Under the pieces are notes generated by a model. It was not told where the DNA came from. It searched no databases and worked only from the letters and a program-made list of their open reading frames with translations. Position numbers and translations under genes: made by a program. This document shows, in pieces, positions 10,553-25,179 of a DNA stretch of 32,000 nucleotides. This DNA is from an uncultured delta proteobacterium. Its GTDB lineage: Bacteria; Desulfobacterota; BSN033; UBA1163. Position 1 is the stretch's first letter, and each line of letters opens with the position of its first letter. The stretch covers positions 672,943 through 704,942 of the forward strand of contig CAWHBU010000004.1 of the NCBI GenBank assembly GCA_963827685.1. Reading direction: 5' to 3'.

Positions 10553-12169
10553 CTATAGCAGACCGTTTGCTTTCGCCTTGGTGACAATCTCAGGTTCTTT
10601 CCACCATTTTTGGATCCCCAGGTCCTGAGCGATTCGGTTGGCAGCGTTATAACCTGCACCATAGGTCACTAACCCTCCGGGGAAGGTGGAAGCTCCACAA
10701 ATGTAAAGATTTTTAATCGGCGTGGCATATTGAGAACAGAGTTCGTTTGGCCTCAAGTATCCCATCTGAAGAGGATAGTAACCTCCTTGCTTAATGGATC
10801 CTTCCACCATGTCTGCAAATTTATTTTCGATGTCCAGTGGAGAGGCAATATAGGTCCAGAGAATATTATCCTCCGTCATATTAGGTGCGTGCTTCTTAAG
10901 TTTATCGATCAATCCTTTGGCATGTTCTTGGCGGATCTTATACCACCTATCAGGGCCTCCCTCCTTTAGACGGTAGGGTGCATGTTCTGATATTAAACCG
11001 GTGTGTCTCCCTGGAGGTGCTTCTGAGGGATCGAAAATGGTTGGAAAGCAGCAGTTGAACCCGGATGGCTTGAGTTCTCCATTTTTTAAGGCTTTAAAAT
11101 GATCGATCAGATTCTCTTCCGTCTCAAATCCGAGAACATAAATAAAAGCTTTATTTAAATCGGGATTCGAAGCTGCAGCAGCAAATTGGGGTACATTAAA
11201 AAGCGCAAGGTGGATATCGAAGAGGGACCACTTCTCCCATTTCCAGTCCTTCGTCCGCGTGACAAGATCTTTTGGGAGATCCTTCTCCCCGATATACTTG
11301 AGAAACGTTTGATAGGGGTCGATGCTGGAGGCAACAAACTTGGTAGCTGTGTAAACCGTTCCATCATCTAATTCAATCCCTTTTGCCGTTCCATTTTCCA
11401 CGATGATTCTCTTGATGATCTGACTTCCTAAGATCATTCCTCCATGACGATAAAGAAATTTAGACATCAAGTTGGCCATATGATGAGAGCCTCCCACGCA
11501 GAGCCGATAGTTAGAAGCTCGATTGATCATGAGTGGAACCAGGTAACCCAGCCCTTCCAGATCATAATCCAATCCCCACAGACAGGTGGCATAGAGCATT
11601 AGCGTCCTGATTTGATTATTTTCGAAAATACTATGCACGATATCGATTGGTTTCTTTTCAGAAAGGGCACTGATTTCTTGACCAAGAGGACTGGAATGGA
11701 GTTTCACGACCTGTTCGAAGGCTGGCTTGGCCATATCGTAAGTAGCGGGTCCCAAGAAGGCATCTACATATTCCTTAAACCGTTTATAGGTATCCCGATA
11801 GGCATCGGCATCTTTCTTAGAGAATTGAGCAAATGAAGCACATGTTTTTTCCACATCCGAATAGATGCAAAGGCTACGGCCATCTGCGAAAGGCATCGCC
11901 ATGACCAAATCGGGATGAATATATTGGAGATCATAAGTTTTATCCAGGTCGAGATCAGGGAATACTGGGGCATAATCCACCATGGGATGGTAGATCGCAT
12001 GGGTATTGTGAATAAACCCGGGGATCGTGACCATCTCCGAGCAAAGGCCCCCTCCCATTTCGTATCTCTTTTCTAAGATCAGGATCTTTAGCCCTGCTTT
12101 GGAAAGGTAACAACCTAAAGTGAGTCCATTGGGCCCACCACCAATGATAATGCCATCGTATTGGGGCAT
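10553..12169 (-). CDS. FAD-dependent oxidoreductase of the phytoene-desaturase (CrtI/COG1233) type. CtmA/B-like subunit, 538 aa.
   Basis: N-terminal [38 protein letters not shown]. The SD GGAAAGGAG lies before ATG 12169. Confidence 0.85.
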
Positions 12170-12227
12170 AATTCTCTCTCCTTTCCTAATGATGATTGTC
12201 CGTAGTTAAAAAGGTAGGGTTTACTAA

Positions 12228-12245
12228 AACTACATTTTCCAGTAT
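12228..12245. repeat. Left copy of the 18-bp target-site duplication (aactacattttccagtat).
   Basis: Identical 18-mer at 13785..13802, directly abutting both IS ends. Confidence 0.8.
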
Positions 12246-13784
12246 GTTTAAGCGAAGTCAATATGTCCCCTTAACTGCAACGTGAAAATGTCCCCTCCAA
12301 GGGTTTTGATCTTGACCCTTGAGTGAGTGGATGAACTTCAATTTGAGTTTCTTTTTTTTAAGTGAGCTCTCATAAGAGATCCCTATTAATGGGCAACAAG
12401 CGAAATGTGAATCGCCAGGTTGCGCTACAATCAACGATGTTCGATGAGCAGGGGGTAAGGGTCACCTTCCCTGGAGGGTGCTGAAGCGAGATAGACCCAG
12501 TGGTAATCTTTAACTCCTTTTGCATGGTGTTTCTTTCGGGGAAGAGCTCTCACCGGTTCCCGGAGGGAAGTAGGAGGATGTTTCGCAATCAACTGATCTT
12601 GAGCGTAGATTCTCCAAGATCCGTTGAGAAGCTGCCGAGCTTCCACCTTGAGCTTCGCATAGGATCTTCTTTGAGGGCCAGGGGGAATATCGAGAACCAA
12701 TCCTCCCAGCCGAGCCGTATTATCGTTGCCGACCGTAGCCGTATAGCGAAAGCTGATGATTCGATCCAGGTCCAGATGGTTTGGGACTTCTCTCCAGGCT
12801 TTTTGGGATTCTCTGGGTCTGACGGCAAAGCGACGGTTAAAGTCTTTTAAAAAGGTTGATTGTAAAAAGCGATTGGCCTCTTCCATCGTTACAATTTCTT
12901 TTAAACGGAGTTCTGCTCCCAGACGATCCTGCAGGGTGGCAAAGAGTTTTTCTATCCTTCCTTTGGCCTGAGGAGAAAGAGCCGAGATCGGCTCAATCCC
13001 CAAGGCTTCGAGAGCTAATCCGACTTGAGTCGGTTCCTGTCGGCCAGCGAGTTGCTCTTCCAAGCTCCAGTGAGGGTCATTCCGATGCAACGACCCGTGG
13101 CGATCCTGATAGATCATCATTGGGATTCCATATTTTTTAATCATCTCTTTAAGAAGCCAGAAATAGCCTGCGGAACCTTCAAAGGGAAAGAAACGGGCGG
13201 CCAGCAGTTTCCCGGTCGCATCATCGATGGCAGCCATCAGACAGCAAGGTGGAAGGTCTCGGCCAAACCAGGGGTGGGGACTCCCATCCCAGAGGACCAT
13301 CCATCCTTCTTGAGCCATTCGCTCCCGTCGCTTTCGATGCTTAGGTCCCCGACGCCTGCGCTTGGGTGCCATCCCCGCCTCCCGCCGTAACTTCCTCACC
13401 GTCTCTCGATTCAAATCGATCCCTTCGCACTCCCGAAGTTTCTCCGTAAAATGGGTATCGTTAAAGTCCCAGTAAACCTCTTCCGACAGCTTTAATACCC
13501 TTTCTCGTAAGGACTCCTTGAGCCGGTGGTTCGAAGGTCGTCCCCTGTTACCATGCACCAAGGCTTTGATCCCTCTCTCCCGGATCGCTTGCCCAATCCG
13601 CTTCGCCTGACGGTAGGACACACCTATCCTCTCTCCAGCCTCCCTCAAGGTGATCTTCCCTACCTTTACGATCTCCATCAGATGCCACCTCTTTAACTCC
13701 CTCTGCCCCATGAGTATCTTCTCCTGTTCCATGGGGACATTTTAACTTAAGCAGTTAATGGGGACATTTCTACTTTGCTAACAC
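12246..13784 (-). mobile_element. Intact insertion sequence (1539 bp) with ~50-bp imperfect terminal inverted repeats. rve/DDE transposase, IS1202/ISNCY-like or IS481-like.
   Basis: The left end is gtttaagcgaagtcaatatgtccccttaactgc..aaaatgtcccc. The reverse complement of the right end is gtgttagcaaagtagaaatgtccccattaactgc..aaaatgtcccc. Each end carries two ATGTCCCC motifs. The element is flanked by an 18-bp direct repeat. Confidence 0.85.
12431..13732 (-). CDS. Transposase with an N-terminal HTH and an rve integrase-core (DDE) domain, 433 aa.
   Basis: LWDGSPHPWF, IYQDRHGSL and SPQAKGRIEKLF form a D, D, E triad pattern. A basic KRRRRGPKHRKRRER linker is present. Confidence 0.9.
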   Translation of the reverse strand: MEQEKILMGQRELKRWHLMEIVKVGKITLREAGERIGVSYRQAKRIGQAIRERGIKALVHGNRGRPSNHRLKESLRERVLKLSEEVYWDFNDTHFTEKLRECEGIDLNRETVRKLRREAGMAPKRRRRGPKHRKRRERMAQEGWMVLWDGSPHPWFGRDLPPCCLMAAIDDATGKLLAARFFPFEGSAGYFWLLKEMIKKYGIPMMIYQDRHGSLHRNDPHWSLEEQLAGRQEPTQVGLALEALGIEPISALSPQAKGRIEKLFATLQDRLGAELRLKEIVTMEEANRFLQSTFLKDFNRRFAVRPRESQKAWREVPNHLDLDRIISFRYTATVGNDNTARLGGLVLDIPPGPQRRSYAKLKVEARQLLNGSWRIYAQDQLIAKHPPTSLREPVRALPRKKHHAKGVKDYHWVYLASAPSREGDPYPLLIEHR

Positions 13785-13839: not shown

Positions 13840-14014
13840 AAAAACTTATAGCAATTCATAAACAATATATATTTCAAACTATTACGCCATATCAATTTTG
13901 CGAATTCTAAGCACAATTACTCTTATTTAGTGGATTAAAGTTGACTTCTTTCCTTATTCAAAATTTGAGATTTCTTATATAGGTGGACAAGGTATTTCTC
14001 TTAAGGAGCATTTT

Positions 14015-14959
14015 TTGAATCTCAAACAATTAGAAGCTTTTTATTTGGTGGTAAAGAGGAAGAGTTTTACTCGGGCAGCAGAAGAATTGAATGTGACCCA
14101 GCCTGCTGTCACCATCCAAGTCAAATCCTTAGAGAAGTCATTGAATTTGAAACTCATCAATCAGATAGGGAAAAGAGTACAATTAAATGAAGCTGGAGAA
14201 CTCCTCTACGAATATGCGGAGAAAATCTTTGATCTTGTCAACGATGCCGATGAGAAGATGAGGGATTTCAAGAAACTGATGAGAGGGACGCTTCAGATTG
14301 GGACAACAAAGAATTATGCCCGTTACATCATGCCTTCTTTGCTCTCCGAGTTTCAGAGGAGATTTCCTCGTATCAAGGTCATTTTAGATGAAGGGAACTC
14401 CGAGGATATGGCCAAGAGTGTCTTTGAGAAGAAAAATGAACTCGCCCTCATCTCCCAACTGAACCTTGATCGAAAAATCAAATCAACCTTTTTCTCGACA
14501 GTAGAGTTTGTTCTGGTTGTTTCACCCGAACACAGGTTCTCGCAGAGGAAGAGCATCTCCCTGAGAGAATTGAATGGTGAACCGGTGATTTTGAGGGAAA
14601 AGGGATCTGGTTCAAGGGCGGCCATTTTGAGGAAATTTCAGGAATACGGGATCTGGCCATCGGTAATTACTGAGGCAAGCAGTTTGGACTTTATCGTGGG
14701 ATATGTGAAACAGAACAAAGGGGTTTCCTTCATGTTTCAGCCTGATATCGAAGAGGAATTGGAGAAGGGAACCTTGAAAGTTATCTTCATCGAAGAGGGA
14801 AACATTATTTTCTTTACTGATCTCATCTATCACAGTGAAAAATCTCTCTCACCTCCTAGCCAAGCCTTCCTAAAAATGGTGGGAGAATTAAGGGGCCAGG
14901 GTAAAGGGGAGTTTAGGGCAGGGTTCGTCCCGCCAAGTTCCGTTCTTCAAACCTACTGA
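14015..14959 (+). CDS. LysR-family transcriptional regulator (TTG start), 314 aa.
   Basis: N-terminal HTH LKQLEAFYLVVKRKSFTRAAEELNVTQPAVTIQVKSLEKSL. AAGGAG lies 6 nt before TTG 14015. Confidence 0.9.
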   Translation: MNLKQLEAFYLVVKRKSFTRAAEELNVTQPAVTIQVKSLEKSLNLKLINQIGKRVQLNEAGELLYEYAEKIFDLVNDADEKMRDFKKLMRGTLQIGTTKNYARYIMPSLLSEFQRRFPRIKVILDEGNSEDMAKSVFEKKNELALISQLNLDRKIKSTFFSTVEFVLVVSPEHRFSQRKSISLRELNGEPVILREKGSGSRAAILRKFQEYGIWPSVITEASSLDFIVGYVKQNKGVSFMFQPDIEEELEKGTLKVIFIEEGNIIFFTDLIYHSEKSLSPPSQAFLKMVGELRGQGKGEFRAGFVPPSSVLQTY

Positions 14960-14966
14960 AAATCCA

Positions 14967-15701
14967 TCAACATCTTCGTCTTTTATCCTCACTGTAGAGA
15001 TTTAGAAATTGATTGACGGCCTCCTGGGCGAATTCTCGAGTGTTAAGGTGGAGATTGAGCTCGATGATCGGGATCTTCGGATCGATATGAATCTTCAACT
15101 CGTCGAGGAAGGCGCGATCCCCCACTGGATCATAAAGAGGCATCCCTTCCTTATCGAGAGAAGACCATCCCTTCAAGGGGATGAGAATAGCCACAGGTCC
15201 TCTTGACCGATTTAATTTTCTGGCCACCTCTCCTGCAATTTCTTTCAACTCCTGAGGATTGGTGCGAGCTTGAACCCTAAAAGCATCCGGAATGAAAAGT
15301 TTTCTATTTTTGATATCCTTTGATACCCAAAGGGGATCTCCTCGATCACCTCTTTCCAATGGCCCACAACTGAGCATATCAAATCCGCAAGGCGTGATAA
15401 TTTGAGGAATGCCCAGTTTCCCGGCGGTCACCACAACATTTCTTCTCAATTGAGCAGCCAGCTTTTCTGAAATCTTTTTTACCAAGGCGTCCTCTTTATG
15501 CCCGATAAAAGTAAAATTGGAAGAGGTGGCACTCCATTTTTTCGGATTCTTTAAGCTGGGCCTCGGAATGGCGATTCCCACAGCACCGATATGAAATCGG
15601 GTTCCTCCCCAGGTGGAAATCAAGAGGTCTTGGCCCACCTCTTGAACAAAACCCTGGATCCTGAATCGACCTTTCGAAATTTCAACCAAAAATCTTTTCA
15701 T
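14967..15701 (-). CDS. Chimeric ORF. The N-terminal ~95 aa are LpdD-like (small prFMN-chaperone partner of UbiD decarboxylases), joined to the C-terminal ~150-aa domain of a UPF0261 (Tm-1-like) protein.
   Basis: Residues 1-95 (..DLLISTWGGTRFHIGAVGIAIPRPSLKNPKKWSATSSNFTFIGHKEDALVKKISEKLAAQL..VVVTAG) fit the LpdD pattern as I remember it. From GKLGIPQIITPCG...ILIPLKGWSSLDKEGMPLYDP the sequence is collinear with residues ~270-405 of the 16463..17680 product. There is no obvious SD before ATG 15701. Confidence 0.65.
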   Translation of the reverse strand: MKRFLVEISKGRFRIQGFVQEVGQDLLISTWGGTRFHIGAVGIAIPRPSLKNPKKWSATSSNFTFIGHKEDALVKKISEKLAAQLRRNVVVTAGKLGIPQIITPCGFDMLSCGPLERGDRGDPLWVSKDIKNRKLFIPDAFRVQARTNPQELKEIAGEVARKLNRSRGPVAILIPLKGWSSLDKEGMPLYDPVGDRAFLDELKIHIDPKIPIIELNLHLNTREFAQEAVNQFLNLYSEDKRRRC

Positions 15702-15830
15702 GGAATTGGTTCCAATTTTAGAAAGTCAGTGAGATTCTGTCAACCCCGATTTATCCTTTCTAGGCTACTCCCGATTCGGAATTTAGTAAAAAACTTAGTG
15801 GATGTGGTGACCAGAAACGAATGAAGAGAG

Positions 15831-16397
15831 TTAATCAGCCGCCGTCCCCCATCTTCTAAATAGGTTCGCATCGATAGAGAAAAGGTCGAGAACCTTTCCA
15901 ATGGTTTGGTTGATTAAATCTTCGATGGTCTTCGGATGATGATAAAAAGCAGGGATAGGAGGCATAACAATTCCTCCCATTCTTGTTACCTTGATCATCA
16001 GTTCAAGATGCCCCTCGTGCAAAGGTGTTTCCCTGACAAGAAGGACGAGCCTCCTCCTTTCCTTCAACATCACATCGGCCGCTCTCACAAGAAGGTTATG
16101 GCTATAGGAATTTGCAATCGCAGAAAGGGTCTTGATGGAGCAGGGAGCAACCACCATCCCATCCACCTGGAAGGAACCACTTGCCAAAGGTGCACTCAAA
16201 TCCTCCTCGTCATAAACATGGGAGGCCATGGATTCAAGTTCCACCTTGTGATAGGTGGTTTCAATTTCCAAGTTTTTCAAACCTGCCTGGGTGATGATAA
16301 AATGAGTCTCCATTCCCAATTTAGAAAGGACTTCGAGGATTCTCACGCCGTAAATCACACCGGAAGCACCGGTCATTCCTACGACTATGCTTTTCAT
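15831..16397 (-). CDS. ubiX: Flavin prenyltransferase UbiX (prFMN synthase).
   Basis: MKSIVVGMTGASGVIYGVRILEVL... plus S/T-rich loops and APCSIKTLSAIANS. ATG 16397 is preferred over the track's TTG 16421. Confidence 0.9.
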   Translation of the reverse strand: MKSIVVGMTGASGVIYGVRILEVLSKLGMETHFIITQAGLKNLEIETTYHKVELESMASHVYDEEDLSAPLASGSFQVDGMVVAPCSIKTLSAIANSYSHNLLVRAADVMLKERRRLVLLVRETPLHEGHLELMIKVTRMGGIVMPPIPAFYHHPKTIEDLINQTIGKVLDLFSIDANLFRRWGTAAD

Positions 16398-16462
16398 ATA
16401 AGGAGTAAGATCACTTGACAATCGACACAGTCTTACACACTTCTTGAAATTTCGTATGCACC

Positions 16463-17680
16463 TTATGTAAACAGCCCAATGCTTTCTTTCACAATCGTCT
16501 GGGCGAAAAGAGGTTCCTCCATGTTAGCCTCGATTTCTATGAGTTCAATACCAGATTTCAGTTCCTTTTGCAGTTCTGAAACAAATATTTTATCCTCTTG
16601 GGGGTCATAGGTCGGGCTATTTGGTAAATCCACTGATGACCATCCTTTAAGAGGGATGATGACTTTCACCGGTGCCTTTGATTTATTCAGTTTTTCTGCA
16701 AACGCATGCGCTGCTTTTACAAGTTCGTCAGGGGAAGCTCTGAGCCATGTACGAAATTTGTCGAGGTCATATTTTCTTCGACTTTTATGATCATTGGTAT
16801 ATTTAGATTTGGGAGGGGTAATATGATTCACCCCGCACGTGGAGATTATCTGAGGAATCCCTACCTTCCCTGCCGTCTCCATCCGATTGGGTCCTGCATC
16901 CCTCATACCACCAACAAGATGCTCTATGACACCTCCAGGAGCTAAATCAATTACCCCGTTGAAGAGCCCCTGCTCTATCATTTTTTCCATAGCCCTATCC
17001 CCTATCCCTGCTGCAGAAAATCCTATAACCTGGTATCCTTTCCCTTCTAAGGACGTCCTCACGTTACTAGCACACTTTTCGCAAGGACCTAACATAGTAA
17101 GAGCAATAACATTCCTCTTCTTGTAAGCGTAAACTGTTTGAAGAGTGGGCGCATCCACCATACCACAGATGGCATAAGCTCCTCTATCTATTACATTTTT
17201 AAGGATATCGCTTAGTCCTGAGATTTCTATAACAGAATGGATGAGGGCGATATCGCCTATTTCAATATACCGGGTTGACATACCAGGGAGGGCAGCGGTT
17301 GAGGAAATCATAACTTTTGGAACTCCAAATGGAAGAATCCTCATCACATCTGTAGCCATTAAAGAACCAGTAGACCCACCCATACCTATGATCCCATCAA
17401 GTTTTCCTTCTCTCCACATGTTAAGGGCAAGAGTCGCCGCACCTTTTGTCATGATCGCAGTGTTTTTTGCCCTTTCGTGGGATATAAGAATTTCCTCAAG
17501 TTTACTCCCTCCTGCCTCTGCCACCTTGTGAGCTGAAATATCAGCATTCATGCCCTCAGCCAATCTCATAGAGATGTCAAGAATCAAAGGATTTTTACCG
17601 AGTTGCCCTATTTTATCCCTTAGATAGAATGTTTCTGTTCCTTTGGTATCAAGGGTAGAGATGATCAAGATTGTTTTCAT
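16463..17680 (-). CDS. UPF0261 / Tm-1-like ATP-binding domain protein, full length (405 aa).
   Basis: N-terminal KTILIISTLDTKGTETFYLRDKI, then GMGGSTGS, ETAGKVGIPQIIS and IPLKGWSS. It starts 7 nt after the ligase stop. Confidence 0.75.
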   Translation of the reverse strand: MKTILIISTLDTKGTETFYLRDKIGQLGKNPLILDISMRLAEGMNADISAHKVAEAGGSKLEEILISHERAKNTAIMTKGAATLALNMWREGKLDGIIGMGGSTGSLMATDVMRILPFGVPKVMISSTAALPGMSTRYIEIGDIALIHSVIEISGLSDILKNVIDRGAYAICGMVDAPTLQTVYAYKKRNVIALTMLGPCEKCASNVRTSLEGKGYQVIGFSAAGIGDRAMEKMIEQGLFNGVIDLAPGGVIEHLVGGMRDAGPNRMETAGKVGIPQIISTCGVNHITPPKSKYTNDHKSRRKYDLDKFRTWLRASPDELVKAAHAFAEKLNKSKAPVKVIIPLKGWSSVDLPNSPTYDPQEDKIFVSELQKELKSGIELIEIEANMEEPLFAQTIVKESIGLFT

Positions 17681-17687
17681 TGCTATG

Positions 17688-19334
17688 TTATCCCCCAGCT
17701 ACTTTCTTTTCTAACCCTGCTTTCAGGACTTTTTTATCCACTTTGCCTGAGTCTCCCACGATAGGAAGGGATTCTAAGATTTCGAATCGCTCAGGTAGCT
17801 TATAAGCAGCCAGTTTCCTCTCCTTTAAGAAAGAGATCATCTCATCCTTCGTAAAAGTTTCCCGGGGCTTGACAACTACGAAAGCACAGGCCCGTTCCCC
17901 CATCTCCTTATCAGGATATCCGATGATGGCCACGTTTGCCACTTTTGGATGTTCGTTAAGAATCCCCTCTATCTCTGCAGGGTAAATATTTTGTCCACCC
18001 CTGATGATCATATCTTTTGCCCTACCCATGATCCAGAGAAACCCTTCTTCTGACTTCACAATGTCTCCTGTAGTTGTCCAGCCATCTTTATCAAATACCT
18101 GGGCTGTTGCCTCAGGGTCACGGTAATATCCTGCTGGTCCATGGGGACCTCTGAACCACAACGTCCCAGCCTCTCCCTCAGGCACCTCCTTTCCATCATC
18201 ATCTAATAGCCTCACTTTATTGCCTGGTAACATTCTCCCTACGGTTCTCCTCCTTATCTCTCCAGGGTCATCTACGCTGCAACCAGAAACAGACCCTACA
18301 TCCTGCGTCCCGAGGTCGCTTGTGATGATCGCCTTATATCTCTTTTCTGCCTCCTCCGCAACTTGAGGGGATAGATACCCGCCCGCTGAACGTATAAACC
18401 GTAAAGAACTCAAATCATACTTTTTCTCATCTACTTCAAGCATCCTTATCAGGTGGGTTGGCACAACCCCAATAGCAGTGACTTTCTCCTTCTCAATAAG
18501 GGCAAGTGCACCTTCAGGGTCAAACTCCTCCATCAGCACAGTTTTTGCTCCTACCAGAGGTGCTGCAAAGTAGGTAAGGGTTCCTGCTGCTCCACCTGCA
18601 TGGGGAGCAATAGCGAGTGTTACGTCGTCCTTCGTCAATTTCCAAATATCCACTCTTGCCTTAGAGGTGCAAATTCTCGGTGCGATGGGCCATTCCACCA
18701 GTTTGGGAAGACCAGTCGTCCCTGTGGTGCTGGTAAGCAATCCTACATCCGAATAGGCATTGAATCTTTTCTTATTGAGGATGGAAAGTTTTGATTTGTT
18801 CACAGGTTGATTCGCAAGCTTAATGATGGAGAATGTCCCTTCCGGGGCAGAAGCAGGAATCTCCTCCTCAAAAAGGAAAAAATATTTAAGATAAGGTGAT
18901 GTCTTTCTTAGCTCTTTATACATGTCAAGGTAATTGAATTTACGATAGATATGAGGAATGGCAACTGCAACGGCCTCTGTCCTTTCAACCATAAAGGTGA
19001 GTTCTTTTTCCCTTAAATAGGGATACACTGTTAGAGAGATCAAACCTGCTCGTTCACAGGCAATACGGGCAATGAAGCCATAGACACTGTTGGGAGCCTG
19101 GATAATCATCCGCGAATCTTTTGGAATCCCCATCTTTACCCAGACATAGGCAAGATTGTCTACCAATCGTTTTACTTGAGCCCACGTAACTCTATAGCGG
19201 GAATCAACTAGAGCCTCTCGATCACCAATCTCACGAGCATTTTTTGCCCAGAAATCATAAAAGACTTCGTCAGCCCAGTAGCCATCTCTCTTAAACTCCT
19301 TTATCATTTCGTCACCATACCTTATAGGTCTCAT
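17688..19334 (-). CDS. AMP-forming aryl/alicyclic-acid CoA ligase (adenylate-forming superfamily; EntE/DhbE/AliA-like N-terminus).
   Basis: LTSTTGTTGLPK (AMP-binding core), GYYRDPEAT, TGD...G...I.GR.KD.I..GG.NI. ATG 19334 lies 6 nt after GAGGTG, so the track's GTG 19343 is probably too long. Confidence 0.9.
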   Translation of the reverse strand: MRPIRYGDEMIKEFKRDGYWADEVFYDFWAKNAREIGDREALVDSRYRVTWAQVKRLVDNLAYVWVKMGIPKDSRMIIQAPNSVYGFIARIACERAGLISLTVYPYLREKELTFMVERTEAVAVAIPHIYRKFNYLDMYKELRKTSPYLKYFFLFEEEIPASAPEGTFSIIKLANQPVNKSKLSILNKKRFNAYSDVGLLTSTTGTTGLPKLVEWPIAPRICTSKARVDIWKLTKDDVTLAIAPHAGGAAGTLTYFAAPLVGAKTVLMEEFDPEGALALIEKEKVTAIGVVPTHLIRMLEVDEKKYDLSSLRFIRSAGGYLSPQVAEEAEKRYKAIITSDLGTQDVGSVSGCSVDDPGEIRRRTVGRMLPGNKVRLLDDDGKEVPEGEAGTLWFRGPHGPAGYYRDPEATAQVFDKDGWTTTGDIVKSEEGFLWIMGRAKDMIIRGGQNIYPAEIEGILNEHPKVANVAIIGYPDKEMGERACAFVVVKPRETFTKDEMISFLKERKLAAYKLPERFEILESLPIVGDSGKVDKKVLKAGLEKKVAGG

Positions 19335-19395
19335 TTCATTCACCTCTTGTCATGAAATTCCAATATCAACCGCAGTATCGGAGAAGGGCAGTTTT

Positions 19396-20817
19396 TTAAC
19401 CTTCAAATCCATACTCTTTCCAGCGAGCCTTAACCTTTTTCACGATCTCTTCATCCAGTTTTATTTCAACCGGTTTTCGTTCCCATTCAAATGGAATACA
19501 GGCATCCATGATGATTCGCGAAACAATTTCTCTGGCATCAACGGGAAGGGCAGGATCAAGCGGGGTGGAACGCCCTCTCTTAATGATCTCTGTGCTCCGG
19601 TAAGGATCATAACGCATGGACAAGGCCCATAAGACCCTATCAATGTCATCGGCTCTGATATCGTCATCCACTACAATGACCCCTTTCATGCCGTAGTGGC
19701 CTGTCGTGGTGGAGATGACTGCTGTGCCCACTTGCATGGAGTGGCCAGGGTACATCTGTTTGACAGATACGATTCCCCAGAATCTGCCGCCCGTTTCAGG
19801 GGGGATATATACAGACTGGATGCCCGGGACCTTCATATTCTCCAGGTCTGTCCAGAGGGTTGCTGTGCGGTTCAGAGATTGAATCATATGGGTATCGGTC
19901 ACTGGTTTCCCTACAGAGGTGGACCAAAAGACTGGATTGTTCCGGTGGAGAATCCGCTTCACGTTCAGACAGGGCTTGGGCCACTCCTCCCCGGTCTTTC
20001 CAGAATAGTAACCAGTATATTCCCCAAAGGGTCCTTCTTGCCTGAATTTTTCAGGATCGGTCTCAATCTCACCCTCCAAGATAATTTCAGCCGTACTGGG
20101 AAGGGGAAGGCCGGTCAGGTCGCTTTTGATAACTTCACAGGGGGTTCCTCTTAAGGATCCCACAATATCATATTCGCAGAGACCGGCAGAGACCAGAGTG
20201 CTCCCAGCAAGGAAGAGAAGGGGATCACCCCCAATCACCGCTGCTGCAGGCATTGTTTTTTTCATCTTCTGATATTTCTTCAACATGAAGTCAGCATGTT
20301 TCCCTTTGATGATCTGGACTCCTGCGGTCTTTTCATCCAAGACCTGCATTCGATAGGTTCCCAGATTGACCCAATCACTCTCAGGATCTTTAGTGATGAC
20401 AAAGTGGGCTGTTCCAATAAAGCGGCCACCATCCATCGGATAGAATTTGGGTACAGGGAAGTTGAGGAGGTTGATATCACGCCCTTGGATGATCTTCTCT
20501 GTAATTGGCCCGGTTTTGACCTCCACACGCGGGATTAATTTTTTGGTCGTCAGTTCCATCCATCTCTTTGCCATGTCGTACATTGAAAAATGGAGTGGCA
20601 TTCCGAGAGCAATGGCCAGACGCTTTGGTGAGGTTAAGGCGCTTGTCAGTAAAGGAATCTGGTAGTCTTTCACTTTTTCGAAGAGAAGAGCTGGGCCCTT
20701 CTTCTCCTCGTTCAACTTCGCGATGTGGGAGAGTTCGAGATTCCAGTCGACTTCAGCCTTTATCCTCTTTAGTTCTCCTTCCTCTTCACACTTTTTTATA
20801 AAATCTCGAAGATCCAT
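19396..20817 (-). CDS. UbiD-family prFMN-dependent (de)carboxylase, 473 aa. Its size class matches phenylphosphate carboxylase alpha/beta and 4-hydroxybenzoate decarboxylases.
   Basis: Signature EGPFGEYTGYYSG with family-typical N-terminal DLR.FI..C...GEL..I...VD. The SD GAAGGAGG lies before ATG 20817. Confidence 0.9.
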   Translation of the reverse strand: MDLRDFIKKCEEEGELKRIKAEVDWNLELSHIAKLNEEKKGPALLFEKVKDYQIPLLTSALTSPKRLAIALGMPLHFSMYDMAKRWMELTTKKLIPRVEVKTGPITEKIIQGRDINLLNFPVPKFYPMDGGRFIGTAHFVITKDPESDWVNLGTYRMQVLDEKTAGVQIIKGKHADFMLKKYQKMKKTMPAAAVIGGDPLLFLAGSTLVSAGLCEYDIVGSLRGTPCEVIKSDLTGLPLPSTAEIILEGEIETDPEKFRQEGPFGEYTGYYSGKTGEEWPKPCLNVKRILHRNNPVFWSTSVGKPVTDTHMIQSLNRTATLWTDLENMKVPGIQSVYIPPETGGRFWGIVSVKQMYPGHSMQVGTAVISTTTGHYGMKGVIVVDDDIRADDIDRVLWALSMRYDPYRSTEIIKRGRSTPLDPALPVDAREIVSRIIMDACIPFEWERKPVEIKLDEEIVKKVKARWKEYGFEG

Positions 20818-20849
20818 AAAAACCTCCTTCTTTCCGATATTTAGGCATC

Positions 20850-20904
20850 TTAAATTATTATTTTAATTAATCCTCTTGTCAATTCACTTATCTTTATGTA
20901 TAAA
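20850..20904. promoter_or_regulatory. Divergent promoter/operator region. Overlapping face-to-face -35 boxes (cTTGTCAAt) with TATAAA (plus) and AATAAT (minus) -10 boxes, plus a TTAAA-N7-TTTAA dyad.
   Basis: Plus strand: ttgtca 20876-81, 17 nt, tataaa 20899-904. Minus strand: ttgaca is tgtcaa 20877-82, 17 nt, then aataat. The dyad ttaaattattattttaa is at about 20850-20866. Confidence 0.4.
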
Positions 20905-20924
20905 TAACTTGAGGTTATAGGAAA

Positions 20925-21845
20925 ATGGAGAATAGAAGCCCTTTAAATACTTCGTTGAATTCTCTTCTTGTCTTCCATCAGGTAGCGAAATTTAGAAGCT
21001 TCTCCAGGGCCGCAGAGGAGTTATTTATCTCCCAACCTGCCGTGTCCAAACATATCAAAGAGCTGGAACAGAAGATAGGTATGGGTCTTATCCGAAGGGG
21101 AAGTGGGGGATTTGACCTGACTGAAGCAGGGGGGATCCTCTTCAAACATACCCATAATATTTCTTCCCATCTCCTGGAGATTGAAAATGCCCTGGGCAAT
21201 CTAAAAAAAGACCGTCACGGTGTTTTGAAGATTGGGACCACGGAGTCCTATTCGAAATGTTTGATGCCGGAACTCCTTTCTGGATTTCAGACCTTTTATC
21301 CTTCCATTAAAATCACCCTGGAAGTGGGAAACTCTGAGGAGATTGAAAAGAGCCTCCTCGATTACAAAAACGACCTCGGCTTAATCGGAGCGGTCAAGGC
21401 ATCCTCAAAATTTGAATTGGTTCCCTTCTTAAGGGAGGAACTCGTCCTCATTGTTTCGCCCAACGATCCCCTTGTCAAAAGAAAAGCAGTTTCTCTGAAG
21501 GAGATTAAAGGATATCCCTTCATCGTTCGTGCAAAGGGTTCGACAACCCGTAGAATCTTATTCCACGCCTTTAAAGAGTTCGATATTCACCCCTCTCTAT
21601 TGATTGAAGCAGGCAGCTCCGAATTTATCAAACAATGGGTTTCAGAGGGGAAGGGGGTGTCTGTTATTGTTAAAAGGTCAGGGGAAGATGAGGAGAAGAG
21701 AGGGACGATTAAGATGATCCCGTTGCTGGAGAAGCTCTACCTTGAAGTAGCCGTCCTCTATTTGAAAGAGGAACGGGCTAACCCCGTCATCAAAGCCTTC
21801 ATTCAATATATGGAAAACAAGAGGAGAGATTTTTCCCAAGTTTAA
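20925..21845 (+). CDS. LysR-family transcriptional regulator, 306 aa.
   Basis: HTH LNSLLVFHQVAKFRSFSRAAEELFISQPAVSKHIKELEQKI. Divergent from the UbiD gene. Confidence 0.9.
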   Translation: MENRSPLNTSLNSLLVFHQVAKFRSFSRAAEELFISQPAVSKHIKELEQKIGMGLIRRGSGGFDLTEAGGILFKHTHNISSHLLEIENALGNLKKDRHGVLKIGTTESYSKCLMPELLSGFQTFYPSIKITLEVGNSEEIEKSLLDYKNDLGLIGAVKASSKFELVPFLREELVLIVSPNDPLVKRKAVSLKEIKGYPFIVRAKGSTTRRILFHAFKEFDIHPSLLIEAGSSEFIKQWVSEGKGVSVIVKRSGEDEEKRGTIKMIPLLEKLYLEVAVLYLKEERANPVIKAFIQYMENKRRDFSQV

Positions 21846-21910
21846 AATAATTGCCCCCAACTTATCTAAAAGAGATAACTTAAATTTATAGCCATATAAT
21901 AAAAAATCCA

Positions 21911-21938
21911 TTGACAAAACCCTATTGAGATAGATAAT
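21911..21938 (+). promoter_or_regulatory. Candidate sigma70 promoter (TTGACA-16-GATAAT) upstream of the second PpsA-like gene, flanked by two AGCCATAT motifs.
   Basis: ttgaca is at 21911-16 and gataat at 21933-38. agccatat occurs just upstream and just downstream. Confidence 0.35.
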
Positions 21939-22182
21939 GAGCCATATGGGTTTTTAAGTACACCAATTACTGAAATTACTCCATCCATTCAAAATAACTC
22001 AAGATATTCGTTCTGTTAAAGGGAGGTCATCGCTACTTTTTTTCAGACACAAACCCGAAAGAGGAAGTAATAACACGATGGTAATGAGAAGGAGGTGATG
22101 AGGGAATTATTTGTTTTTAAAGGTATTTTTTTATTTAGACGTCGTCTTTCAATTATTAAATAGAAAGGAAGGAGGTGCAACA

Positions 22183-24030
22183 ATGGCTCAGAAGAAAGGT
22201 TTTCCAATGCCGATGGAAGTGAAGTATCCAAAAGAATTGGAAGGTTGGGAGGAGATGTATCCATCACACTATCTCTTCTCCAAGGAAAGGGCGGAATGGG
22301 AAAACAGACAATTCTGGTATCAGGACAAGATACATGACCCGGAACCTATGCCTCCTCTTGACCTGATATTCCATGAGGCGTGGCAGATATCTCTCTCCCA
22401 GTACACTACCCGGGTATTTTGTATACCCCCGGCGCAAGGTATCGCCCAGAGAATGGTCGGTTGTTACATGTTTATCGCTCCCGTGGAGCCACCGCCGCCG
22501 GAGGTCATTGAAGAGAAAGCTAAGCTGTTTGGAAAGCGGGCCTTCTACATATTCGAGCACTATGATGAGCTGTGGGAGAAATGGCTTAATAAGTTTCAGG
22601 CACTGGGCAGAGAAATGGCGGATGTGAAAGTGCCTGAAGAATTACCCAAATACGTTCCTGAAGAGCTGGTTTTGCCCGCTCCAAAAGGCTATTACGCCTC
22701 GTATGAGCTAATGGAGGCTTTCAACACGCTGGTAGATCAAATGTTTAAGGGCTGGCAGTATCACTTCGAGATGCTAAACCTGACCTACCTGGCCTACCTG
22801 ATGTTTGCTGACGTAGCCAGGAAGCTTTTTCCGGGGATAAGCGAGAGTTCTATCGGCAAGATGGTGTCTGGTGCTGAAGTATCCATGTTCCGCCCTGAGG
22901 AGGAGCTCTGCCGGCTGTCAAGGCTAGCGGCTTCCTATCGCAGTGTAGGTGACATCATTAAAAGTGATGCATCCGCTGAGCAAAAGATAGCGGGACTCAG
23001 AAAGACAGAGGATGGGAAAAAGTGGCTTGCTGAGATGGAAAAGATCAAAAACCCGTGGTTTTACATATCATGCGGAAGCGGATGGTTCTTTTACGAGGGG
23101 AGCTGGCTTACCAAAATGGACATCCCTTTTAACTATATGAAGAGCTACGTCGAGAGGCTGGGCAAGGGAGAGAAGATAGAGAGGTCACTGGAAGGGATAA
23201 GTCAGAAAAGGGATGAGATTGTTGCCGAGTACAGAAAATTGATTAAGTCCGACGAAGATAAGAAATCGTTCGAGGATGCTTATAAGACGGTCAGGGGAAT
23301 ATACCGGTTTGCTGAAGACCACCTTTTCTGGGTGGAGCACTGGTTGCATACCATATGGTGGCAGAAGATAAGGGACATCGGAAAAGTCTTCGTTAAGCAG
23401 GGAATGTTGAAGGAAGTAGATGATATATTTATGTTTAATAGATTTGAAGTGCCCGAGCTGATAGAGGAGCTGGTCATCGCATGGGCCCTGGGTGAAGGTG
23501 TCCCTCTGAGAGGCAAGTACTATATGGACAAGGCAGAGAAGCGGAAGAGGATACTTGAGGCAGCCAGGAAGTGGAACCCGACACCGGCTCTGGGCGTCCC
23601 GCCTGAAGAGGTTGCCGAACCCTTTACGGTGATGTTATGGGGAATTACAACGGAGAAAGTTCAAGAATGGCTAAAAGGGATGGCCGTTGTTCCAACAGAG
23701 GTGACCGAACTGAAAGGATTTGCTTCATCTGCAGGGGTCGTCGAAGGAAAGGTGAGGGTTGTTAAACATCTTGACGATCTCACCAAGATCGAACAGGGTG
23801 AAATACTGGTTTGCCCGACGACCAATCCGGCCTGGGCTCCTATCTTCACCAAAATCAAAGCCTCCGTCACGGACATCGGCGGTCTGACCTGCCATGCCGC
23901 TATTGTATGCAGGGAATATGGAGTCCCATCGGTGACCGGTACAGGAATCGCTACTTCCGTCCTGAAGACGGGGGATACCGTAAAGGTTGACGGTAACACT
24001 GGGATAGTAAAAATATTGAAGCGGGCATAG
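22183..24030 (+). CDS. PEP-utilising-enzyme mobile (phospho-His) domain protein, PpsA-like paralogue 2, 615 aa.
   Basis: ATG 22183 follows AAGGAAGGAGG. N-terminus FPMPMEVKYPKELEGWEEMYPSHYLFS...FWYQDKIHDPEPMPPLD. C-terminus GFASSAGVVEGKVRVV...ILVCPTTNPAWAPIF...VTDIGGLTCHAAIVCREYGVP. Confidence 0.85.
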   Translation: MAQKKGFPMPMEVKYPKELEGWEEMYPSHYLFSKERAEWENRQFWYQDKIHDPEPMPPLDLIFHEAWQISLSQYTTRVFCIPPAQGIAQRMVGCYMFIAPVEPPPPEVIEEKAKLFGKRAFYIFEHYDELWEKWLNKFQALGREMADVKVPEELPKYVPEELVLPAPKGYYASYELMEAFNTLVDQMFKGWQYHFEMLNLTYLAYLMFADVARKLFPGISESSIGKMVSGAEVSMFRPEEELCRLSRLAASYRSVGDIIKSDASAEQKIAGLRKTEDGKKWLAEMEKIKNPWFYISCGSGWFFYEGSWLTKMDIPFNYMKSYVERLGKGEKIERSLEGISQKRDEIVAEYRKLIKSDEDKKSFEDAYKTVRGIYRFAEDHLFWVEHWLHTIWWQKIRDIGKVFVKQGMLKEVDDIFMFNRFEVPELIEELVIAWALGEGVPLRGKYYMDKAEKRKRILEAARKWNPTPALGVPPEEVAEPFTVMLWGITTEKVQEWLKGMAVVPTEVTELKGFASSAGVVEGKVRVVKHLDDLTKIEQGEILVCPTTNPAWAPIFTKIKASVTDIGGLTCHAAIVCREYGVPSVTGTGIATSVLKTGDTVKVDGNTGIVKILKRA

Positions 24031-24043
24031 AAATCTGAAAATC

Positions 24044-24095
24044 GGAATGTGGAATGCGGAGTTTTTAAAAATTGAAATTCCGTATTCCGCATTCT
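24044..24095 (+). other. Intercistronic hairpin (~17-bp stem with G-U pairs) built from GGAATRYGGA units.
   Basis: ggaatgtggaatgcgga (24044-60) pairs with tccgtattccgcattc (24079-94). The loop is gtttttaaaaattgaaat. Confidence 0.5.
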
Positions 24096-24111
24096 ATAAG
24101 TGGAGTTCATT

Positions 24112-25179
24112 ATGCCATATACGGTATGGTTTGAAAAAGCTGGGAAAGAGGCTGTCGGATTAGTAGGAGGTAAGAATGCCAGCCTGGGGGAGTTGATCAA
24201 AGCCGGCATCCCAGTGCCCCCAGGCTTTTCTATCACGACAGAGGCTTATCATGATTTTTTGAGTGAAGGTGGCATGAAAGAGAAGATCCAAAAGATCTTA
24301 TCCCAAATTACCCTTGAAGATGTCGCCTCTTTGGAAGAGGCGAGCAAGACCATTTATGAACTGATCAGGATAACACCCCTATCAAAAGAGTTAGGGGAGG
24401 CCATCACTTCTAATTATCAAACCCTGGCTCAAGTGTGCGATGTCATCAATATCCCTGTTGCAGTCCGTTCCAGCGCTACCGCTGAGGATTTACCTGGAGC
24501 AAGTTTTGCTGGACAGCAAGATACCTTTCTTTGGGTGAGAGGTTGTGACGAACTTCTGAAAAAAGCTAAATCATGCATGGCGAGTCTGTTCACGTCTCGA
24601 GCCATTTCTTACCGGATCAAAATGGGGTTTCCTCATGAAAAGGTATTAATCAGCGTTGGTGTCCAGAAGATCGTGGATGCCAAAGCAGCAGGAGTGATGT
24701 TCACCCTAAATCCAACCAATGGAGATCCATCCAAAGTGGTCATTGAAGCGAATTGGGGATTAGGAGAAACGGTAGTTTCAGGGACAGTGAATCCTGATAA
24801 ATTTGTCGTGGATAAGGTCACCTCGGAGATAGAAAGAATGCTTTCCGTGAAAGAATGTGAATGTATCTACGATCCTGTGAGAGGGGGCGTGATGCATGTG
24901 GATACTCCTCCTGACCGGCGGGAAATCCCATGCATTGAAGACCAAGAAATCATTGAACTGGCGAGATATGCAAAAAGAGTAGAAGAATATTACGGGTGTC
25001 CTCAGGACATCGAATGGGCCATTGACCAGCAAAGGCCCTTTCCTTTTAACATTTTCATGGTTCAAAGCCGACCGGAAACCGTGTGGAGCCAGCGGAAAAA
25101 GGAGCCAGTCCTCGGAAAGAAAAGTGCTTACGAACTTCTGATGGAAAAGGCGTTGACCCGAATAAAAGTTAATTATTAA
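24112..25179 (+). CDS. PEP/pyruvate-binding (ATP-grasp) domain protein, PpsB-like paralogue 2, 355 aa.
   Basis: MPYTVWFEKAGKEAVGLVGGKNASLGELIKAGIPVPPGF and VAVRSSATAEDLPGASFAGQQDT. ATG 24112 lies 6-7 nt after GTGGAG. Confidence 0.9.
   Translation: MPYTVWFEKAGKEAVGLVGGKNASLGELIKAGIPVPPGFSITTEAYHDFLSEGGMKEKIQKILSQITLEDVASLEEASKTIYELIRITPLSKELGEAITSNYQTLAQVCDVINIPVAVRSSATAEDLPGASFAGQQDTFLWVRGCDELLKKAKSCMASLFTSRAISYRIKMGFPHEKVLISVGVQKIVDAKAAGVMFTLNPTNGDPSKVVIEANWGLGETVVSGTVNPDKFVVDKVTSEIERMLSVKECECIYDPVRGGVMHVDTPPDRREIPCIEDQEIIELARYAKRVEEYYGCPQDIEWAIDQQRPFPFNIFMVQSRPETVWSQRKKEPVLGKKSAYELLMEKALTRIKVNY

Follow-up and report, generated by a model that had tools for sequence, protein, structure and literature searches.

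The anaerobic degradation of phenol and aniline by sulfate reducers, iron reducers and syntrophs has an open energy problem: on paper, up to four ATP equivalents are spent, more than these organisms can afford, and the authors who studied Desulfatiglans anilini flagged this cost as unexplained (PMC6114531). The phe cluster of D. anilini (H567DRAFT_02049–02059) contains ppcB (02059), a gene for a '2,3-DHB-AMP ligase' (02058), a UPF0261 gene (02057) and a gene for a UbiX-like protein (02056), with ppsA and ppsB nearby (PMC6114531, PMC7500099). Here, we describe a 32,000-nucleotide (nt) stretch of DNA from an uncultured delta proteobacterium (contig CAWHBU010000004.1 of assembly GCA_963827685.1, positions 672,943 to 704,942; the window in what follows, with all positions in its own numbering), in which a UPF0261 gene stands directly behind the gene of an aryl-acid ligase in an operon that begins with ppcB. 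This UPF0261 protein appears to represent a subfamily of its own, and its role in the pathway is the subject of this report.

The D. anilini ligase 02058 is induced by phenol, and the authors state that its function is unknown (PMC6114531). In their similarity search with the proteins of Thauera, five genes of the D. anilini cluster were matched, and neither the UPF0261 gene nor that of the DhbE-like ligase was among them (PMC6114531). Compared with the Thauera enzyme, the D. anilini carboxylase is missing the gamma and delta subunits, and its activity was not measurable in extracts; the carboxylase assay that failed was run with neither nucleotide nor CoA (PMC6114531). A second cluster, ani (03866–03876), carries another UPF0261 gene (03869, 411 residues), which is flanked by the genes of a dikinase subunit (03868) and an acyl-CoA synthetase (03870) (PMC7500099). 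The order in 03868–03872 is PasB, UPF0261, acyl-CoA synthetase, PasA and PpcB. There is no UbiX in this cluster, and a UbiX-like protein was detected on phenol only (PMC7500099). Protein 02057 is listed as 'Uncharacterized protein, UPF0261 family' (403 residues) in the supplementary proteome table of PMC7500099, but the string 'UPF' occurs nowhere in the main text of that paper, and neither D. anilini paper discusses the UPF0261 genes. Our literature search found no paper that links UPF0261 with UbiD, or a Tm-1-like protein with a carboxylase. The original prediction for this DNA, made from its letters alone, held that, to its author's knowledge, none of the described systems it cited (gallate decarboxylase, benzene carboxylase and phthaloyl-CoA decarboxylase) includes a UPF0261 protein. 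The phenol and aniline clusters of D. anilini each have one.

An activity has been demonstrated for a single UPF0261 protein, MarK (Saro_1862) of Novosphingobium aromaticivorans, which is described in the sole relevant UPF0261 paper found in that search (PMC12624787). MarK is a kinase that converts ATP to ADP and phosphorylates the phenolic hydroxyl of acetovanillone and its relatives, so the earlier statement that the biochemical role of UPF0261 is unknown is outdated. In the MarK structure (PDB id: 9MPY), the nucleotide site Asp14-Thr15-Lys16 belongs to the N-terminal subdomain, and the aromatic substrate is located in the C-terminal subdomain, where it is held by Gly195, His219 and His304, all three of which are more than 90% conserved among MarK homologs (PMC12624787).

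The open reading frame (ORF) map and a Pfam scan of the window reveal five co-directional ORFs on the minus strand (14967–20817), separated by gaps of 52, 7, 41 and 129 nt, and a divergent regulator gene:

19396–20817, minus strand: ppcB, UbiD-family phenylphosphate carboxylase beta, 473 residues (Pfam UbiD_N, UbiD and UbiD_C; EGPFGEYTGYY motif)
17688–19343, minus strand: aryl-acid adenylating/CoA ligase, 551 residues, or 548 from the ATG at 19334 (Pfam AMP-binding and AMP-binding_C)
16463–17680, minus strand: UPF0261 protein of the 'U405 type', 405 residues (Pfam PF06792 and PF23189, full length)
15831–16421, minus strand: ubiX, flavin prenyltransferase, 196 residues from a TTG (Pfam Flavoprotein; NCBIfam)
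14967–15701, minus strand: chimeric ORF of 244 residues (LpdD, PF21758, at residues 10–94; UPF0261_C at residues 91–235)
20925–21845, plus strand: divergent LysR-type regulator of the ppcB operon, 306 residues (Pfam HTH_1 and LysR_substrate)

The genes, the range of gaps (7–129 nt), the start of the UPF0261 gene 7 nt after the ligase stop (17680 and 17688, respectively) and the divergent LysR gene are all as originally predicted. With the starts used by the closest relatives, the ppcB–ligase gap becomes 61 nt and the UPF0261–ubiX gap 65 nt. UbiX probably starts at the ATG at 16397 (188 residues), since its gene has this length in the related loci L093 and L094. The five-gene arrangement is far from chance and recurs in dozens of genomes.

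The UbiD protein of the operon matches the NCBIfam equivalog model of the phenylphosphate carboxylase beta subunit (TIGR02724, phenyl_P_beta) with 650.8 bits against a cutoff of 468.95 and covers profile positions 1–471 of 472, while it scores below the NCBIfam cutoffs of the PpcA, VdcC, UbiD-proper and MqnL-type models. UbiX exceeds the cutoffs of NF004685 (264.6 versus 188) and TIGR00421 (260.7 versus 108.9). The solved structures nearest to the ligase are DhbE (PDB id: 1MD9, 2.5e-75) and a salicylate-AMP ligase, which makes it DhbE/EntE-like. Three further genes of the module are located beyond the regulator:

22111–24030, plus strand: PpsA-like dikinase subunit with the His-swivel (Pfam PEP-utilizers PF00391; NF006153, 883.8 bits versus 578)
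24100–25179, plus strand: PpsB-like ATP-binding (ATP-grasp) dikinase subunit (Pfam PPDK_N PF01326, E=8e-115)
25254–26417, plus strand: polytopic membrane protein, 387 residues (without a Pfam family; 3' of ppsB)

The dikinase thus has the split architecture of PpsA and PpsB, with separate PEP-utilizers and PPDK_N proteins encoded side by side. Its PpsB-like subunit is 80% identical to the counterpart in the related loci L007 and L008, and a PpsA-like homolog is found beside PpsB and PpcB in 48 of 80 related loci. Because the UbiD protein scores as the PpcB equivalog and PpsA/PpsB-like genes are adjacent, the locus is, on the strength of these sequence matches, a phenol (phenylphosphate) catabolic cluster of a strict anaerobe, i.e. 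part of a known pathway. The substrate of the prFMN (prenylated flavin mononucleotide) enzyme, which was originally left open between several carboxylases and decarboxylases, is in this way no longer open. The window has a single UbiD gene and no PpcA (the UbiD protein scores 189 on the PpcA model TIGR02723, against a cutoff of 564.6). Genes for PpcC and PpcD do not fit into the 12.35-kilobase (kb) module, the intergenic gaps of which are at most 265 nt, no HAD domain was found by Pfam in any module ORF of at least 150 residues, and the ORF map and Pfam reveal no PpsC gene in the module. The membrane protein, which might be a phenol transporter or serve elsewhere in the pathway, has an 89% identical counterpart in the same place in L007 and L008 (L007, 2101–3213), and in L093 this position is taken by a 370-residue gene without a Pfam match (1245–2357).

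A profile scan with one genome per species yielded 349 related loci. The best 80 of these were searched with the window proteins by tblastn, and the denominators given below are the loci with enough sequence around the gene in question. The 80 loci include members of Desulfobacterales, Desulfatiglandales, Desulfobacula and Syntrophobacteraceae, two metagenome-assembled genomes (MAGs) of Bacillota and one of Ferroglobus. Orthologs of the operon UPF0261 protein fill the best 120 matches at 64–98% identity, with Syntrophorhabdaceae, Syntrophus and other Deltaproteobacteria MAGs as named sources. Of 68 loci, 67 have the ligase gene immediately 5' of the UPF0261 gene; in 57 of 59, ppcB lies no more than 4.5 kb upstream, and 62 of 67 also contain ubiX. 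The gene directly downstream is ubiX (24), lpdD (20) or hcrB (16) in 60 of 65 loci. In the window, 7 nt separate the ligase and UPF0261 genes, and in L010 their ends overlap by a single nt. The two genes therefore form a near-invariant, tightly spaced module that spans Desulfobacterota, the two Bacillota MAGs and the Ferroglobus MAG. The co-occurrence of UPF0261 with UbiD and UbiX outside this locus, on which the original prediction was staked, is borne out by these counts, but UbiX and LpdD are not its tightest partners: the ligase pairing is stricter, a Ser-type UPF0261 (defined below) is found in a locus without UbiD, UbiX or LpdD (L096), and the ani cluster has no UbiX. No protein that joins UPF0261 to a ligase, to UbiD or to UbiX is seen in the 150 best-scoring of 3286 family representatives, which are mostly 380–440 residues long.

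The surroundings of the pair vary. In Syntrophorhabdaceae-type loci (L010–L012), a LysR gene is divergent from ppcB–ligase–UPF0261–hcrBCA–ppsA–ppsB–UPF0261 paralog–lpdD–ubiX, which is followed by a Phenol_MetA_deg family gene. In the closest named relative (L007–L009), ppsB–ppsA is divergent from ppcB–ligase–UPF0261–ubiX–riboflavin kinase, and the last gene encodes a CTP-dependent enzyme (11964–12350). A CBS-domain (PpsC-like) protein is encoded directly 3' of the UPF0261 gene in 10 of the 80 loci. PpcB is absent upstream of the pair in two loci, L064 and L077, the latter of which looks degraded. In L097 (1747–2975), a Ser-type UPF0261 of 53% identity follows the ligase, and NUDIX and CBS genes separate it from lpdD–ubiX. 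In L096, a Ser-type UPF0261 of 41% identity is embedded among genes for a PpsAB-like dikinase, short-chain dehydrogenases/reductases (SDRs), a PYC_OADA carboxyltransferase, an AMP-ligase and an enoyl-CoA hydratase-family protein, and neither UbiD, UbiX or LpdD nor a phosphatase is encoded in this locus.

The operon UPF0261 protein is a full-length family member, with scores of 170.3 and 221.9 bits for PF06792 and PF23189 (cutoffs of 27) and 375.5 for NF002674 (cutoff 335). It matches MarK (PDB id: 9MPY) over residues 3–397 with E=3.6e-47 and Tm-1 with E=8e-43. Its AlphaFold2 model, which has an average predicted local distance difference test (pLDDT) score of 86.6, displays the two alpha/beta/alpha subdomains known from Tm-1 and MarK. 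In a Foldseek search with this model, the TM-scores are 0.78–0.83 for Tm-1 structures (0.83 for 3WRX, the best structural match) and 0.63 for MarK (9MPY), and the E-values for 3WRX and 9MPY are both about 1e-33. The nucleotide motif is retained as D11-T12-K13, with the Thr and Lys unchanged throughout the 117 orthologs and the Asp present in 112 of them, and a GGSTGS motif is invariant in all 117. The phenol-binding set of MarK is not retained, and the equivalent residues are Gly198, Ser222 and Leu306. The position of His219 is Ser, and that of His304 is Leu, Ile or Val, in 117 of 117 orthologs. Among 130 diverse family representatives, the former is His in 117 (about 90%) and Ser in 4, and the latter is His in 95 (about 73%). 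Lys291, Trp312 and Cys203 are invariant in the 117 orthologs, and His254 and Tyr304 are nearly so; Lys291 is rare in the wider family. Since Ser is invariant in the orthologs and His prevails in the wider family, the conservation pattern indicates that the operon protein belongs to a distinct subfamily, here called Ser-type, in which the nucleotide site is intact and the acceptor site has been remodelled and is under selection.

The published D. anilini proteome provides protein levels for two members of these clusters. In replicate 1, the signal of 02057 rises from 0 on 4-aminobenzoate, 5.0e7 on aniline and 5.3e7 on benzoate to 2.5e9 on phenol, and the phenol-grown signals of the ligase 02058, PpcB and UbiX are 1.3e10, 1.8e10 and 3.9e7 (PMC7500099). 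The UPF0261 protein is hence about 65-fold more abundant than UbiX on phenol in this supplementary data set, which is a better fit to a catabolic enzyme than to a cofactor-maturation factor. The ani proteins 03869 and 03870 were made on 4-aminobenzoate and aniline only, with 03869 higher on 4-aminobenzoate in replicate 1 (PMC7500099).

When the described routes are aligned step by step, the UPF0261 clusters compare with them as follows:

Kinase step: PpsABC in the Thauera phenol pathway; HpeHI in the Hpe/Acv acetovanillone pathway; a PpsAB-like dikinase in the UPF0261 clusters
Carboxylase step: PpcABC in Thauera; HpeCBA in Hpe/Acv; PpcB, or PYC_OADA in L096, in the UPF0261 clusters
Phosphatase step: PpcD in Thauera; HpeD (AcvF) in Hpe/Acv; none in the UPF0261 clusters, which have UPF0261 instead
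Ligase step: a CoA ligase in Thauera; HpeE in Hpe/Acv; an AMP-forming ligase in the UPF0261 clusters

Because UPF0261 fills the otherwise missing phosphatase slot across these pathways, we favour the interpretation that the operon protein is a phosphotransferase of the catabolic route, coupled to the ligase, and not a prFMN factor; this is what the gene arrangement and the residue pattern suggest, and we would put it at about an even chance. The LysR regulator would control ppcB, the aryl-acid ligase, UPF0261, ubiX and lpdD, with ppsA, ppsB and the membrane protein gene beyond it. UPF0261 and the ligase would act on a para-substituted benzoate intermediate by way of an ATP/ADP-linked phosphoryl transfer. 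In the step that we prefer, the phosphate group of an aryl phosphate would be taken off by a nucleotide acceptor in place of water, and the free hydroxy-acid would then be passed to the ligase. The smaller Ser222 and the conserved Lys291 could accommodate a phosphate ester and a carboxylate. This exact step, which comes from the pathway comparison, is held less firmly than a phosphotransferase role as such. The most specific version, in which an energy-conserving aryl-phosphate:nucleotide phosphotransferase would move the phosphate of phenylphosphate or of a carboxylated aryl phosphate to ADP or AMP, replace the phosphatase and hand 4-hydroxybenzoate to the ligase, is put forward tentatively, as a rather unlikely one.

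Several observations weigh against a phosphotransferase of the catabolic route. The loss of both MarK histidines could mean that catalysis has been lost. By our own reasoning, the transfer from phenylphosphate to ADP may be uphill, unless it is pulled by later steps, because MarK drives the formation of an aryl phosphate from ATP. D. anilini subunits of the PpcB type, produced recombinantly and refolded, carboxylated phenylphosphoamidate with no UPF0261 present (PMC7500099). HAD hydrolase genes are found near 6–9 of the 80 clusters. The proteome figures were taken from supplementary tables (replicate 1, partly replicates 2–3), and no statistics of our own were made on them. Finally, UPF0261 immediately precedes lpdD or ubiX in 44 of 65 loci, and where hcr genes intervene, the other UPF0261 paralog precedes lpdD–ubiX, and therefore a prFMN-related role fits the gene map as well.

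Such a role had been proposed in the original prediction, as an ATP-dependent accessory factor of prFMN. It could consist in making dimethylallyl phosphate from prenol for UbiX, or in the ATP-driven loading or oxidation of the cofactor without O2. Besides the adjacency to lpdD or ubiX in the 44 loci, the other paralog located right before lpdD–ubiX in Syntrophorhabdaceae-type loci and the UPF0261–ubiX–riboflavin kinase order in the closest named relative speak for it, MarK shows that O-phosphorylation occurs in the family, and how strict anaerobes carry out the oxidative maturation of prFMN is a recognised open problem (PMC10865409). The adjacency to the ligase (67/68) is stricter than that to ubiX or lpdD, however, and Ser-type UPF0261 is found in L096, where UbiD, UbiX and LpdD are absent, and a UPF0261 gene in the ani cluster of D. 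anilini, which did not show a UbiX-like protein on aniline. An abundance about 65 times that of UbiX fits a maturation factor less well than a catabolic enzyme, L097 has a NUDIX gene of its own beside lpdD–ubiX, which may be a more usual candidate source of dimethylallyl phosphate, and the LpdD fusion of the window is a recombination scar (see below). To our knowledge, the well-studied UbiX/UbiD systems work without any UPF0261 protein. The part of the proposal that survives is that UPF0261 belongs with the cluster; the accessory-factor role itself is now the weaker interpretation, possible but improbable. The operon protein might instead be a forward, MarK-like phenol kinase that uses ATP to ADP phosphorylation of phenol as a cheaper alternative or a supplement to the AMP-forming PpsAB. 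It is a MarK homolog with an intact ATP motif, the product, phenylphosphate, would be the substrate of the adjacent PpcB, and activation with a single ATP would ease the energy problem of sulfate reducers. Against this, His219 and His304 of MarK, the residues that bind the phenolic oxygen and stack on the ring, are replaced here without exception, although about 90% and 73% of the wider family retain them, the PpsAB genes are retained in the same clusters, and another paralog in the window (26480–27698) keeps the MarK pocket and is a better candidate, all of which makes a forward kinase quite unlikely.

The loss of both acceptor-site histidines would also be compatible with a protein that binds nucleotide but does not catalyse, i.e. 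an ATP/ADP-sensing regulator or a scaffold of the ligase or of a PpcB–ligase complex. The UPF0261 gene is close to the ligase gene or overlaps it, and Tm-1 works by binding a partner protein (its complex with a helicase is found in PDB ids 3WRX and 3WRY). The remodelled pocket is conserved over 117 orthologs, though, a pattern that speaks for selection towards a particular ligand and not for decay, and the D-T-K and GGSTGS motifs, which are of the catalytic type, are conserved too, so we consider this unlikely. That the gene is an unrelated passenger of the operon is hardly credible. The broad UPF0261 family is mostly found elsewhere, e.g. a 425-residue paralog is encoded between a Hist_deacetyl gene and a LysR gene with no aromatic-catabolism genes near it, but the position of the operon type is kept in 67 of 68 loci from several phyla at 60–98% identity, and the D. 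anilini protein is co-induced with the phenol pathway; synteny effectively refutes a passenger. A phosphotransferase of the catabolic route remains our preferred interpretation.

The last ORF of the operon, in which the original prediction saw an LpdD domain covalently fused to UPF0261 sequence, and the genes that follow it are composed of these elements:

15421–15701, minus strand: truncated lpdD, codons 1–94 of about 143 (PF21758 profile positions 2–85 of 115)
14967–15428, minus strand: 3' remnant, codons about 268–424, of a 425-residue UPF0261 paralog, in frame with lpdD (UPF0261_C profile positions 80–217)
14015–14959, plus strand: LysR-type regulator, 314 residues (Pfam HTH_1 and LysR_substrate)
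12431–13732, minus strand: transposase-like gene, 433 residues (putative assignment, from weak HTH_29, HTH_28 and HTH_21 matches)

The LpdD domain of the chimera is incomplete. It diverges from intact homologs after the motif 'VVVTAG' at residue 94, and the normal C-terminal segment of LpdD ('VHWDRITSNEIK...') was not found in the window. Residues 88–244 are 88–92% identical to residues 268–424 of 425-residue UPF0261 proteins. The combination of LpdD and UPF0261_C occurs in one protein among 5.8 billion, which is the window's own, and each of the best 120 of 601 LpdD homologs stands alone, with a length of 122–157 residues. The window is collinear with the metagenome contig L093 from 15421 to 27661 (88.6% DNA identity), and this collinearity ends exactly at 15421; the operon of L093 ends in an intact lpdD of 143 residues, which is followed by unrelated genes. 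From 13997 to 15428, the window is 80% identical in DNA to the LysR and 3' UPF0261 region (425-residue type) of L002 and L003. The two homologies meet in the octamer AC[C/A]GCCGG, across which the frame is kept ('...VVVTAG|KLGIPQ...'). All of this indicates that the chimera is a strain-specific scar of an illegitimate recombination at an 8-nt microhomology, which joined codon 94 of lpdD to an unrelated 425-residue paralog; the junction itself rests on one assembly. The 244-residue ORF with both domains is thus real, but a designed or functional fusion it is not, given that it is a singleton and that LpdD is an intact protein of 143 residues in relatives, and for the same reason it carries no information on a functional link between UPF0261 and prFMN. 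An intact LpdD of 143 residues (P0241), encoded outside the window, apparently on the same source contig, is 97% identical over the first 94 residues, which implies a recent duplication of lpdD.

The 314-residue regulator is 77% identical to the LysR protein whose gene is convergent with, and 7 nt away from, the 425-residue UPF0261 gene in L002–L005. In these relatives, the 425-residue gene is located between genes for a Hist_deacetyl-family and a 208-residue protein and the convergent LysR gene. We considered whether the 425-residue paralog and this regulator are a regular part of phenol clusters and rejected this, as the extra UPF0261 genes of Desulfobacterales are 36–43% identical to either paralog. 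The LysR genes of Desulfobacterales clusters are about 35–40% identical to both regulators of the window. The transposase-like gene is near the left limit (13997) of the L002 homology. It also stands between the two aromatic clusters of the window, and since it flanks the rearranged fragment and has this position, shuffling mediated by an insertion sequence is suggested.

Sequence derived from UPF0261 occurs three times in the window, as had been noted originally, and we find that it stems from three different paralogs. The third copy is frameshifted, and a second aromatic-looking cluster is found at the other end of the window (689–12169, minus strand):

26480–27698, minus strand: UPF0261 paralog of the 'U3/U409 type' with a +1 G frameshift (two overlapping ORFs with complementary Pfam coverage)
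1093–3833, minus strand: second PpsB/PpsA-like dikinase pair
4022–4924, minus strand: ARMT1/DUF89-type phosphatase
4934–7573, minus strand: MOP-like molybdenum aldehyde oxidoreductase with a fused 2Fe-2S domain

The window reads GGGG at 26861–26864, where L093, which has an intact gene of 405 residues, reads GGG. The extra G could reflect a real pseudogene or an assembly error, and if the frameshift is real, the paralog may be inactive in this genome. The corrected protein of 405 residues is 59–70% identical to the paralog encoded 3' of PpsB in the Syntrophorhabdaceae-type loci L014–L028 and L038. It keeps the Gly195, His219 and His304 of MarK, and its pocket residues are conserved in 11–12 of 12 sequences. 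Because this triad is retained, the paralog is, judging by its residues, a better candidate for a MarK-like phenol kinase than the operon copy. The 281-residue ORF of this region (26853–27698) was also considered as the 5' part of the gene fused to lpdD and was rejected, since its identity to the 425-residue family is 41–44%, as opposed to the 88–92% of the fused part. The second cluster also encodes an ABM-domain protein, an SDR and two FAD oxidoreductases. Parts of it match positions 1–13200 of L096 (GCA_002067445.1), with identities of 54% for an FAD protein, 53% for the SDR and 38% for the PpsA-like protein. In GCA_002067445.1, the cluster runs on to the Ser-type UPF0261, the PYC_OADA carboxyltransferase, the AMP-ligase and the enoyl-CoA hydratase-family protein, whereas that of the window ends at the transposase-like gene. 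An identification of the ARMT1-like phosphatase (4022–4924) with HpeD of the acetovanillone pathway was rejected, as the closest characterised homolog of HpeD is NagD.

The divergent LysR gene and ppcB are separated by a spacer of 107 nt. The same divergent LysR gene is found in L093 and L094, and most related loci have a LysR gene upstream of the cluster. The promoter scan identified a ppcB promoter-like site, TTGACA-17-AATAAT (20882–20854, minus strand, an 11/12 match), and a palindromic LysR box, ATAAC-N5-GTTAT (20904–20918, with T-N11-A at 20905–20917), was read by eye and is assigned a putative function. The box is about 64 nt upstream of the predicted ppcB transcription start, which we take to be the classical position of a LysR recognition site. 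The spacer has only one strong sigma-70-like site, and the scan found no plus-strand promoter for the LysR gene in it. Promoter-like matches in the region are in total no more numerous than in shuffled sequence. The overlapping face-to-face promoters that had been proposed are therefore not supported, because the second, facing promoter was not detected and the match count is no higher than the shuffled background. A further near-consensus promoter-like site, TTGACA-17-TAAAAT (15715–15743), is found inside the 129-nt gap upstream of the lpdD-derived ORF, and because of it, lpdD may be transcribed apart from ppcB–ubiX.

An independent assembly (L001, Logan, ERR10755942; 317–1736) is 99.7–100% identical to the window across ppcB–ligase–UPF0261–ubiX and thereby corroborates these four genes of the operon. 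It stops short of the lpdD junction, and a frameshift of its own splits its ppcB. Elsewhere in the window, a ribbon-helix-helix and PIN-domain toxin–antitoxin pair is encoded at 29257–29954, and the region 30000–32000 has a low GC content (0.35–0.40 versus about 0.46 elsewhere) and only short ORFs without a family match.

What is new here is a conserved and so far unremarked UPF0261 component of the phenol pathway, which itself is known, and a Ser-type subfamily with an acceptor site unlike that of MarK. A conserved ATP-binding protein, abundant and substrate-induced in D. anilini, encoded between the carboxylase and ligase genes and those of the cofactor and undiscussed in the literature, is a candidate for a missing step, be it phosphate recovery, the hand-over of substrate to the ligase or the activation of the cofactor. 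If true, a nucleotide-linked recovery of phosphate would bring down the four ATP equivalents that sulfate reducers and syntrophs would otherwise have to spend and would explain why the D. anilini carboxylase assays without nucleotide or CoA failed. UPF0261 may thus explain how energy-poor anaerobes afford the activation of phenol, which is of relevance to the bioremediation of phenolics and to the engineering of reversible UbiD carboxylases.

Compared with MarK, the operon protein has the same two-subdomain fold and the same D-T-K motif, and both belong to aromatic clusters that phosphorylate first and carboxylate afterwards. Unlike MarK, with its His219 and His304, the operon type has an invariant Ser and a Leu, Ile or Val. 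MarK replaces the AcvAB/HpeHI dikinase, whereas the window cluster keeps a dikinase of the PpsAB type; the MarK cluster belongs to an aerobe and has a biotin carboxylase and a phosphatase, whereas clusters of the window type are found in strict anaerobes and have a UbiD-type carboxylase. The N-terminal region of tomato Tm-1 (PDB ids: 3WRV–3WRY) shares the ATP-binding UPF0261 fold, but Tm-1 also has a C-terminal TIM-barrel domain and binds a viral helicase, while the window has no TIM-barrel partner: in agreement with the original prediction, no PEP-hydrolase-like TIM-barrel gene was found among the window ORFs scanned. UbiD, an aromatic CoA ligase and UbiX form a triad in the proposed benzene carboxylase cluster (abcDA–bzlA–ubiX) and in phthaloyl-CoA decarboxylase clusters. 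The window shares this triad, but its UbiD protein scores as PpcB and not as a member of another clade.

As in the LpdBCD gallate decarboxylase, the LpdD of which is a prFMNH2-binding chaperone, an LpdD-family gene is found beside ubiX and the gene of a UbiD enzyme, and by an alignment made by eye, the His residues of the LpdD metal-site region lie within the 94 N-terminal residues that the window has retained (PMC10865409). The window LpdD is cut at residue 94 and joined to foreign sequence, in contrast to its intact homologs, which are stand-alone proteins of 122–157 residues. With PpsABC and PpcABCD of Thauera aromatica, the window has in common a PpsA/PpsB-type dikinase and a UbiD-family PpcB, followed by a CoA ligase (PMC6114531), but Thauera has PpcA, PpcC, PpcD and PpsC, and the window module has none of these. 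D. anilini differs from the window in that genes for hcr-like subunits are located inside its phe cluster, whereas there are none beside the window operon, where lpdD is truncated. The two share the core order ppcB–ligase–UPF0261–ubiX, with ppsA and ppsB near it.

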